The notes under the pieces are model-generated. The model was given only the letters and a program-made list of their open reading frames with translations. It ran no database searches and was not told the origin of the DNA. Both the position numbers and the translations under genes were made by a program. DNA of 50,331 nt from a virus. Taxonomy: Duplodnaviria; Heunggongvirae; Uroviricota; Caudoviricetes. Position 1 is the stretch's first letter. The number at the start of each line of letters is the position of its first letter. Positions 5,589 to 7,467 of the stretch are shown here, in pieces. Location of the stretch: the IMG/VR virus record IMGVR_UViG_2734482547_000008; one strand, given 5' to 3'.

Positions 5589-5981
5589 AACAGAGTTAAT
5601 CCTGGCTTTCCTGAAAACCTCGGTTTACGGGAAACGGTAAACAGGGCGGCGAATGCTCTGCCATCGGACGGCACCGCCGTTGCCGCGAATAGACTCGCCA
5701 CCCCAAGAAATATTAATGGGGTTCCCTTTGACGGGACGCAGGACATAAACATCACTTCTGGTATAACACAGCAGGATGCGGATTCCCGATATATCCAGGA
5801 TATCAGGCTGGGAGCAGAGAACAGGCAGGTAATGTACGGTGGGGCATATTACTCTGCGTACGGTAATGTTATGGCAGGCCTGCAGATTGACAGTAAAGTT
5901 GATGCTTCAAACGATTTTATAGCATTCAGACCCCTGCAAAAATTAGTCGGAGGTACATGGATTACGGTATCTCAGTTATAA
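5589..5981 (+). CDS. Alternative tail-fibre C-terminal cassette, no start codon, silent in this orientation
   Basis: Open frame from the stop at 5586-5588 to TAA 5979-5981. Encodes ...[47 protein letters not shown]..., sharing a ~45-aa block with the expressed tail fibre (6586-7467) through a ~130-bp inverted repeat. Confidence 0.55.
   Translation, partial: NRVNPGFPENLGLRETVNRAANALPSDGTAVAANRLATPRNINGVPFDGTQDINITSGITQQDADSRYIQDIRLGAENRQVMYGGAYYSAYGNVMAGLQIDSKVDASNDFIAFRPLQKLVGGTWITVSQL
5608..5633. other. gix/hix-type recombination site A (TTCCTGAAAACCTCGGTTTACGGGAA)
   Basis: 26-bp site with two 12-bp inverted half-sites around a 2-bp core. Near-identical to the Mu gix core AAAACCTCGGTTTACAGGAA. 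Sits next to the gin start. Confidence 0.6.
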
Positions 5982-6937
5982 ATAGTCAGTAAATAATATA
6001 TTTTAAAACAGATTTATTTCCAGGAGGATTTTATGGAACTAAAAAATATAACCCGTTATTATCCTGAAAATATGCCATATGGTAATAATGTTCAGTATTT
6101 CCAGAGTGAAGATGGTAAGGATTTCTACGAATCCCTGCCATTATTCACCAAAAAATATAAACTTTGCATAACACCTGACAGCGGCGTTATCTGCTCAATA
6201 TCACAGGACGCCTCGGCGCTGTATCCTGCGGGGTTTTCTGTGGTTGAGGTCGATGAACTCCCTGAAGGCACGGATATTTCAGGAAACTGGAAGTTTGATA
6301 ATGGCATAATCTCCCGTATTCCGGTTAACTACGCAAGAAAACTGGAAGCAATGCGCCAGTCATATCTTAATCAGGCATATGAAAAAATTAATGACTGGAG
6401 AACGGAGCTACAACTGGGCACCATCAGCGATGAAGACAGAGCAGCACTTACCCAATGGATGGCATACATCAGTCAGGTGAAGAAAATGGAACTACCCGCC
6501 ATTAAAACAGAAGCTGAATTTAACGCCATTAAATGGCCTGAGCAGCCACAGTAATAAAGAAGGCCGGAAGGCCTTCTGAATATCATTATATACTTGCAGC
6601 CGTCACCCATGCTCCATTTAACAGATACTGCAACGGCCGGTAATACACGCCGCCGACGTTATCTGCCGTATTCTTACCGACATCCTGTACTTTAATTCCG
6701 GTAAGAACATTGCCGCCCCCCAGATTCAGATCCCAGCTTTCCCATGTTCCGGGCATATGTGCGGTCACCGACCCCAGTCTTATGGCGGTTACTGTTCCTG
6801 ATGAGATAGTGATATCCTGCGTCCCGTCAAAGGGAACACCATTAATTGTGTGGGCATTTGCCAGCCTGTTCGCGGCAACGGCGGTGCCGTCCGATGGCAG
6901 GGCATTCGCCGCCCTGTTTACCGTTTCCCGTAAACCG
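5621..6937. other. Gin-invertible tail-fibre segment (~1.3 kb) between the two gix-like sites
   Basis: Bounded by inversely oriented gix-like sites (cores TC at 5620-5621 and GA at 6937-6938). Holds alternative fibre C-terminal coding sequences on opposite strands and one tail-fibre assembly gene. Confidence 0.6.
6033..6554 (+). CDS. Tail fibre assembly chaperone (Mu U/U'-like), serves the alternative cassette
   Basis: 173-aa ORF directly after the alternative fibre cassette on the same strand. GGAGG Shine-Dalgarno. Size and position match Mu U/U'. Confidence 0.6.
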   Translation: MELKNITRYYPENMPYGNNVQYFQSEDGKDFYESLPLFTKKYKLCITPDSGVICSISQDASALYPAGFSVVEVDELPEGTDISGNWKFDNGIISRIPVNYARKLEAMRQSYLNQAYEKINDWRTELQLGTISDEDRAALTQWMAYISQVKKMELPAIKTEAEFNAIKWPEQPQ

Positions 6938-7467
6938 ACGTTATCGATAAAAGCCCCTTTATCCGGAATGTCTGCGCCGTTCTGCTCCCTGCGCAGGTAA
7001 CGGTTATCACCTTCGCTTTTGCTGTAAACATCCAGATTATTACGGGCGGTTCCCTTATTCTCCAGGTCGGCGAGATTCTGATCCTTCGCCAGGGCATTAA
7101 CGTCAGCGGGACCAAGACTGTTTTTTGTGGCAAGCGTCCCCAGACCAAGATAACCACGGGCCAGACGCTGGGCCTCCGCACCGGCATCAGCAATTTCTTT
7201 CAGGTTATTTTTCCGGGAAAAAGCATTCGCAGCGATAATGGCTTTAATGGACAGCGTAAGCTGGTTTAACTGCGCCTTATCCGGCTGAATACTGGCTTCA
7301 GCCAGAATATTCAGCAGTTCGGCCTGGAGAATATTCAGCCAGTCCTGACCAATCCAGCTGATACCTTTTTGTCCGTCACCTTCAGTAAACCAGGTGGTGG
7401 TATTACTCTGCGCCGGTGCCAGCGCAGGCATATTCGCCACGCCGGAATTATTATCAACATGAAACAT
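6586..7467 (-). CDS. Tail fibre protein (Mu S-like), currently expressed variant
   Basis: 293-aa ORF after the baseplate genes. N-terminal constant part is outside the invertible segment and the C-terminal ~115 aa is inside it. Contains [10 protein letters not shown], also present in the alternative cassette. Confidence 0.7.
6925..6950. other. gix/hix-type recombination site B (TTCCCGTAAACCGACGTTATCGATAA)
   Basis: Left half-site TTCCCGTAAACC matches site A's right half in inverted orientation. Right half resembles the Mu gix half-site TTATCCAAAACC (9 of 12). Lies inside the tail-fibre gene at the constant/variable junction. Confidence 0.55.

Follow-up and report, generated by a model that had tools for sequence, protein, structure and literature searches.

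The 50,331-nucleotide stretch of DNA registered as IMG/VR record IMGVR_UViG_2734482547_000008 (hereafter the window, meaning the whole stretch analysed) is a complete Mu-like transposable prophage, belonging to the family that includes Sp18 of Escherichia coli O157 Sakai. It carries an invertible tail fibre segment of 1,317 bp between crossover points (5621-6937), which contains a silent fibre tip, a single tail fibre assembly (tfa) gene and the expressed tip. The interpretation that we favour, with a probability of roughly 0.6, is that of a Gin-type switch corresponding part for part to the Mu G segment, in which one Tfa, expressed from its own promoter, serves both tips.

In the proposed mechanism, the invertase encoded at 4970-5542 would recombine two gix-like sites and join the constant part of the fibre to either tip. 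Relative to Mu, the segment has lost about 1.7 kb, made up of the long shaft parts of both variable regions and of one of the two Tfa genes, and the single remaining Tfa would chaperone both tips. In the orientation found in the window, tfa would depend for its transcription on a separate promoter upstream of the gene, probably an activator-dependent one; expression of tfa in this orientation is what we infer from the sequence, and is the weakest link of the mechanism.

Crossover sites and inverted repeat

The two crossover sites are 26 bp long and lie in inverted orientation at 5608-5633 (left site, + strand, TTCCTGAAAACCTCGGTTTACGGGAA) and 6925-6950 (right site, + strand, TTCCCGTAAACCGACGTTATCGATAA), exactly where an initial annotation, made by inspection of the sequence, had placed them. 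The site pattern finds just these two matches in the 50 kb, against 0 expected from 100 shuffles. The central dinucleotides, TC at 5620-5621 and GA at 6937-6938, are reverse complements of each other, as inversion needs. In the fibre gene, both sites occupy the codons at which gixL and gixR lie in Mu, within ...NVGLRETVN... here and ...NLGLQETVN... in Mu, and their inner half-sites are nearly identical to those of Mu.

An inverted repeat of about 150 bp runs inward from the sites (left arm 5613-5761, right arm 6797-6945), composed of a block of 86 nt (93%; 5613-5698 and 6860-6945) and one of 50 nt (84%; 5712-5761 and 6797-6846). It codes on both strands for about 49 residues common to the two tips. 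The initial annotation had given about 1.3 kb for the segment, in agreement with the measured length, and about 45 residues for the fibre segment found on both strands, close to the count above; its figure of about 130 bp for the repeat was too small. Many short-read IMG/VR contigs (L034-L036, L039-L041 and others) stop precisely within the inverted repeat, at residues 169-190 of the fibre; the switch is thus a breaking point for assemblies, and whole-gene copies of the locus are under-represented.

The fibre gene and its two tips

The expressed fibre gene (6586-7467, - strand, 293 aa) contains the right site. Its constant N-terminal part (6938-7467, - strand) extends for 177 residues up to the crossover, and residues 1-191 of the fibre match the constant part of Mu S (PDB 5YVQ_A and 8JU3_A, E about 1e-46). 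The alternative tips measure 116 or 119 residues from the crossover. Tip A, the variable part of the expressed fibre (6586-6937, - strand), is convergent with tfa. Tip B, the silent alternative C-terminus, is an open frame devoid of a start codon (5589-5981, + strand) and is co-oriented with tfa; inversion fuses it to the constant part, and the resulting 296-aa fibre is annotated in E. coli NCCP 13983. Silent tips of this kind are routinely labelled as pseudogenes or hypothetical proteins by annotation.

Tip B matches the distal domain of Mu S (PDB 5YVQ_A, 1.5e-10), and over roughly their last 70 residues both tips resemble the distal domain of Mu S and S' in structure-database matches. Apart from the approximately 49 residues in common, tips A and B are two different C-termini, as originally described, being about 31% identical over their last 75 residues, compared with 38% for Mu S and S'. 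By homology with Mu, the switch is predicted to change receptor specificity.

The Mu S tip (5e-07) and the C-terminal end of the phiTE phage short tail fibre (4e-24) are both matched by a profile of the class to which tip A belongs; by tblastn of phage genomes, the class was found at the fibre ends of P2-like phages, in SfMu S' and in others. The tips and the chaperone are homologues of members of the Mu families (S and S' tips, U), and tip A has counterparts in P2-like fibres. phiTE is a flagellotropic Pectobacterium phage, in which the tip-A-class domain corresponds to residues 482-553 of PDB 9CUY chain c, left unmodelled in the published structure (PMC11972413). In many NCBI records, partial copies of the fibre described here are named 'transposase, partial' or 'DNA-binding protein, partial', which looks like propagated mis-annotation.

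A single tfa gene

The tfa gene (6033-6554, + strand) encodes a protein of 173 aa with a Pfam Caudo_TAP domain (PF02413, E=4.8e-19, 69.2 bits against a cut-off of 22.1). It is a homologue of Mu U (PDB 5YVQ_B at 4e-16), with an identity of 29% to Mu U and 33% to Mu U'. Its strand makes it co-oriented with the silent tip only, as the initial annotation had noted. That annotation had left room for an overlooked second chaperone gene: none was found in the 50-kb window by tblastn with Tfa, the next-best match having E=0.9, and a phmmer search with six diverse Tfa seeds returned the 6033-6554 product as sole match in the scanned, fibre-proximal 14 kb (1-14000). The dedicated Tfa located downstream of each tip in segments of the Mu G type is replaced here by one tfa.

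Mu fibre production is reported to require Tfa, which stays on the tip (PMC8174754, citing North et al. 2019), and Tfa proteins are described as having a variable, fibre-binding N-domain and a conserved C-domain (PMC9608196). By analogy with Mu, the Tfa of the window would be needed for the folding of the fibre tip and would remain bound to it.

A GC-rich hairpin (6558-6577) lies between the convergent tfa and fibre genes. A GC-rich hairpin is found at the tfa/fibre junction in all relatives, with one of two unrelated sequences; the presence of unrelated sequences at the same place argues for a terminator function, and the hairpin is likely a bidirectional terminator. Whichever way the segment is turned, late transcripts of the fibre gene would be expected to end at the hairpin, so that in the window orientation tfa would not be co-transcribed with the fibre and would need its own promoter.

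Inversion in nature

The segment inverts in nature. In E. coli FORC_029 and NCCP 13983 the prophage is inserted at the same site, a disrupted fimbrial usher gene next to elfD, and the two copies are identical at all 42,601 positions except for an interval equal to window 5639-6919, which is the exact reverse complement between the two strains (0/1,281 mismatches). The limits of this interval place the exchange between 5621-5638 and 6920-6937, inside the predicted sites.

The enzyme encoded next to the left site, outside the segment, is a serine DNA invertase of the Gin/Pin family (4970-5542, - strand, 190 aa), with Pfam matches to Resolvase (1.6e-51) and HTH_7 (4.9e-15). Over 184 aa it shares 74% identity with Mu Gin, and its catalytic Ser9 lies in MLIGYIRVST. 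The initial annotation had described the switch as driven by gin: the inversion is confirmed by the two strains above, while that it is carried out by this invertase, and not by a related one acting in trans, is what we infer.

The frequency of the two orientations was evaluated by comparing the window, and a second query with the segment flipped in silico, against 5,426 complete E. coli genomes by megablast. The window orientation was found in 18 records at 98.8% identity or more, and the flipped one in four records at 99.8% and in two more at 94-96%. An exact-sequence look-up located the 293-aa fibre on 997 public contigs and the predicted 296-aa flipped fibre on 271. The convergent orientation, as in the window, therefore predominates, with a share of about 79% according to three independent counts. 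Mu lysogens invert slowly, and so keep the orientation of the infecting particle; the majority seen here mirrors this founder effect, as expected if particles with the window orientation founded most lysogens.

Some strains carry the locus twice. DLI.5a (hits H12/H46) and TOE17 (H16/H47) have it at two chromosomal places each, in opposite orientations, whereas in AST46 (H7/H49) and CI5 (H25/H50) the additional copy is flipped and has diverged further, to 94-96% identity. These genomes would be compatible with a chaperone supplied to tip A in trans, the Tfa coming from another resident prophage (lambdoid or P2-like) or from a duplicate of this one. Several tfa genes are common in E. coli genomes, and different tips are tolerated by Tfa proteins of the U type, as detailed below. 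A phage, however, cannot count on which prophages a new host happens to contain; the present one is single-copy in most genomes that have it, and the window has no further Tfa gene. Supply in trans is accordingly regarded as very improbable.

Relatives with one tfa gene

Related loci were collected by an IMG/VR scan with the constant part of the fibre, which returned 58 loci, and from E. coli genomes. About 30 of the related loci have in common a layout consisting of constant part, tip, one tfa, tip, invertase and DUF6645 gene, and phmmer with the six Tfa seeds gives one match for each locus of this layout. At least eight tip alleles and several Tfa alleles are found among them, and both orientations are present. 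Such recurrence of a single tfa identifies the layout as a conserved, widespread design, not an accident. No description of the single-Tfa arrangement was found in the literature.

A scan of one genome per species, again with the constant part, produced a single locus, from Citrobacter braakii. In strain ATCC 51113 (L010 / L050, 6001-11483), a 2.6-kb segment contains one tfa (229 aa), co-oriented with the silent tip; an extra fibre gene with collagen-like repeats and its own tfa lies downstream of the invertase. Two loci with more distant constant parts, L042 and L043, have the canonical two-tfa layout, as Mu and SfMu.

Two classes of tip are distinguished among the relatives, each with a fixed position with respect to tfa. 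The class always placed tail-to-tail with tfa includes tip A and is marked by the signature ...ADN[IV]GGVYYRP...; its members are intact in all relatives examined. The class always placed just upstream of tfa includes tip B. One allele of the Tfa N-domain combines with tips just 38-50% identical, on either side. A covariation of the N-domain with either tip class was considered and discarded, as the alleles are freely reassorted and no specific pairing can be assigned.

A lineage locked in the convergent orientation

Eight IMG/VR loci and those of E. coli M1, M3, M18 and CI5 (12 loci, including L003, L016, L018, L019, L024, L030, L032, L038 and L070-L072) lack both the invertase and the co-oriented tip. 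One deletion junction is common to the five loci examined, namely L003, L016, L030, L038 and L032 (by near-identical upstream sequence). The deletion has one end at about codon 168 of the invertase and the other some 20 codons before the end of the co-oriented tip, so that the final 67 nt of the invertase gene now adjoin approximately the final 65 nt of a tip gene. As a result, a tip of the A class is fixed as the expressed one, and tfa is permanently convergent with it. The tfa gene is intact in 12/12 loci, with a ratio of nonsynonymous to synonymous substitution rates (dN/dS) of 0.10-0.23.

A 13-nt direct repeat (TAAAACAGAGTTA-like; 4908, 5586 and 6004) was evaluated as a substrate for the deletion and rejected, as it leaves the junction unexplained; it was also rejected as a shared promoter element, its orientation relative to the genes being inconsistent.

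M3, M18 and CI5 each have the prophage inserted in a different host gene, and a fourth flank is found in L030. The genes are a lateral-flagellar flgL-like gene, that for the R subunit of a type I restriction system, and a molybdopterin cofactor-binding gene next to xdhB, apparently xdhA. For a transposable phage, the simplest reading of the several insertion sites is that it remained infectious and went on infecting new hosts once the deletion had occurred.

These loci also bear on the possibility that the window orientation is OFF or defective, the fibre misfolding for want of a co-expressed chaperone, and that the locus is an ON/OFF switch or is decaying. The gene arrangement by itself suggests an OFF state, and the Mu Tfa is required for fibre production (PMC8174754). 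Against this stand the prevalence of the window orientation, with 18 complete genomes vs 4-6 and 997 contigs vs 271, the integrity of the tip-A-class tips in the relatives, the presence of the locked lineage, fixed in precisely this state, at three or more different insertion sites, and the efficient packaging of its DNA by the family member Sp18 (PMC2669165). An OFF or defective state thus seems quite improbable.

One Tfa for both tips

Tips of the A class are followed by their own downstream Tfa in SfMu (gp52, gp51), in the P2-like phage fiAA91-ss (H, G) and in C. braakii; judged from these sequences, the class would not be intrinsically chaperone-free. Furthermore, Mu U and gp51 of SfMu share 87% identity over the N-domain and 99% over the C part, and yet gp51 pairs with a tip bearing the tip-A-class signature, whereas U pairs with a tip whose nearest relative is allele T2 of the co-oriented class (56% identical). 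Two near-identical proteins working with different tip classes indicate that a U-type Tfa is not tip-class-specific. The presence of Tfa partners for the tip-A class elsewhere, this promiscuity, the locked lineage and the majority orientation together favour one Tfa for both tips.

The same evidence must be confronted with the possibility that tip A folds with no Tfa at all, Tfa serving the co-oriented tip alone, so that inversion would toggle both the tip and the Tfa cap bound to it. In favour of this, tfa could never be co-transcribed with tip A, a terminator hairpin lying between them in all relatives, and the scan reported below detected no promoter for tfa. The fibre of Alteromonas phage A5, which does not need its chaperone, is a precedent (PMC10579305), and a Tfa homologue is lacking in Shigella phage Sf14, although its fibres are Mu-like (PMC11821841). 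This explanation is however hardly reconciled with the Tfa genes that directly follow the same tip class in SfMu, fiAA91-ss and C. braakii, nor with the intact tfa of 12/12 loci deprived of the co-oriented tip, where the gene would be useless; in addition, the tips are homologues of that of Mu S, for which Tfa is needed (PMC8174754). A chaperone-free tip A is for these reasons held to be unlikely.

A corollary, a little less likely still, is that inversion decides whether any Tfa is made, the fibre of the majority orientation working uncapped and that of the other orientation capped. The Mu Tfa cap remains on the tip and helps in binding lipopolysaccharide. Were Tfa toggled in this way, one phage would offer a natural pair of homologous Mu-type tips, the one chaperone-dependent and the other chaperone-independent.

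From the gene arrangement, the initial annotation had predicted for the expressed variant either independence from a chaperone or reliance on one encoded elsewhere. The comparative evidence points instead to a shared Tfa, acting independently of orientation, and on sequence grounds the earlier prediction appears less likely than a shared chaperone.

A Tfa shared by both tips would have to be expressed in the convergent orientation. The region upstream of the gene was compared in eight relatives (L003, L007, L009, L016, L030, L032, L038 and L048). The 75 nt preceding tfa are 92.8% conserved, against 83.3% at tfa third codon positions, and hold a TATCAT hexamer, resembling a -10 element, with a poor -35. 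An activator-dependent late promoter would look like this. The 75 nt also include a near-invariant block, GCGATAGTATTATTCCTGTTTTTATCATTGATT, which can be read as well as an in-frame hydrophobic extension of Tfa, MAIVLFLFLSLIYMVMF. The Mu C-protein site, searched as the pattern TTAT-N6-ATAA, gave one irrelevant match, at a chance-level rate, and was dropped.

Several observations weigh against the shared, independently expressed Tfa and the switch built around it. A consensus scan of the window detected no sigma-70-type promoter on the + strand for tfa, the candidates that can be named having poor -35 hexamers, and the upstream block conserved in the relatives is absent from the window, which has a different, 51-nt spacer of its own. 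In the locked lineage, the non-coding remnant near tfa is less diverged than the synonymous sites of tfa, and the tfa diversity was probably imported by recombination; the low dN/dS is consequently no proof of selection in the locked arrangement, and counts as weak evidence. The spread of the same lineage could in principle be due to intracellular transposition plus other gene transfer. As to the recombination itself, in the Mu and Hin systems a Fis-bound enhancer lies in cis within the 5' part of the invertase gene. By nucleotide comparison with Mu gin, such an enhancer was not recognised in the invertase gene of the window, where conservation is not clearly elevated and one loose Fis-like match is common to both genes.

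Comparison with known switches

The closest parallel is the Mu G segment (Sc-Sv-U / U'-S'v, Gin), to which the window is related by an invertase 74% identical, by gix-type sites at the same fibre codons and by homologous constant part, distal tip domain and Tfa; in Mu also the invertase is downstream of the segment, with com and mom further on. The initial annotation had rightly described the Mu segment as about 3 kb long with a chaperone for each orientation: it measures 3,059 bp, compared with 1,317 bp here, and has two Tfa genes instead of one. The variable part of Mu S extends for about 335 residues from the crossover, compared with about 116-119, and the inverted repeat of Mu is of 34 bp (PMC4406740), compared with about 150 bp. 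Unlike in Mu, a DUF6645/SASA esterase gene is inserted here between the invertase and com/mom.

Sp18 of O157:H7 Sakai belongs to the same prophage family as the window; O157:H7 strain 380-94 and other genomes of Shiga toxin-producing E. coli (STEC) give matches about 85% identical over 57% of the query. The one-tfa layout was read in one of these relatives, STEC 2014C-3011 (L006); its alleles differ from those of the window, with a Tfa 61% identical and tips 36-46% identical. Sp18 has been described as having an invertible host-specificity region with genes different from those of Mu, and its DNA is packaged (PMC2669165).

The P segment of e14 in E. coli K-12 (stfP-tfaP / tfaE-stfE, PinE) is likewise a prophage switch of the Pin family, with a Mu gp48-like gene (YmfQ) beside the fibre, and is found in both orientations in sequenced genomes, but it is 1,797 bp long and has two tfa genes (PMC12529663). 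The S' tip of the SfMu G region (gp52) is of the tip A class, being 49% identical to tip A and 60% to allele T5, but it has its own downstream Tfa (gp51), within a full Mu layout. In the carotovoricin Er region of Pectobacterium (Ein), a compact locus, fibre C-termini are also exchanged by an invertase (PMC13195805, citing Nguyen et al. 2001); carotovoricin Er is, however, a tailocin of the P2/pyocin type and not a Mu-type phage.

Prophage and neighbouring genes

Gene order was read along the + strand, from the interval 4500-9000 and the list of open reading frames (ORFs), the late genes themselves being read on the - strand. Beyond the 293-aa fibre gene are located a Mu gp48-like gene, its upstream neighbour, identified by a Pfam Phage_Mu_Gp48 match, a baseplate J gene and further tail genes of the Mu type. 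Large ORFs at about 35-38 kb sit where Mu A and B are expected and, by position only, are presumably their counterparts. Com and Mom genes are annotated in near-identical E. coli prophages, at positions equal to window 470-1361.

On the other side of the switch, the ORF list includes a DUF6645/SASA-esterase gene (2830-4884, - strand, 684 aa), whose product has a sialate O-acetylesterase-like SASA domain at residues 117-312 and a C-terminal DUF6645 domain. In all family members whose sequence extends to this region, the locked lineage among them, the gene lies immediately downstream of the invertase. The protein could be a second receptor-modifying tail protein, or the product of a cargo gene like the NanS-p esterases of Stx phages.

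The prophage ends at about position 341 of the window, and the flanking ORF 83-376 resembles a fragment of a family-1 glycosyl hydrolase (phospho-beta-glucosidase-like). The insertion site is thus different from that in FORC_029, the fimbrial usher gene adjacent to elfD, and near-identical copies have inserted at different places. The RefSeq annotation of near-identical prophages reports a 'tRNA-OTHER' at a position corresponding to about 21571-21650 of the window (L004 36672-36751); ARAGORN finds no tRNA or tmRNA anywhere in the window.

Implications

Invertible tail fibre segments are the textbook case of programmed host-range switching, and in the textbook layout each tip is given its own chaperone. 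A widespread family of Mu-like prophages of E. coli, Shigella and Citrobacter has the same switch in half the DNA and with one chaperone gene, which in the majority state is on the strand opposite to the fibre gene. For annotators, this means that the silent tip is liable to be miscalled as a pseudogene or hypothetical protein, and that short-read assemblies break at the repeat. If one Tfa does serve two tips only 31% identical over their last 75 residues, the family would provide natural support for the view of Tfa proteins as modular and promiscuous. It would also offer a small, well-defined system in which to establish what a Tfa recognises, useful for engineering the host range of phages and tailocins with fewer parts.

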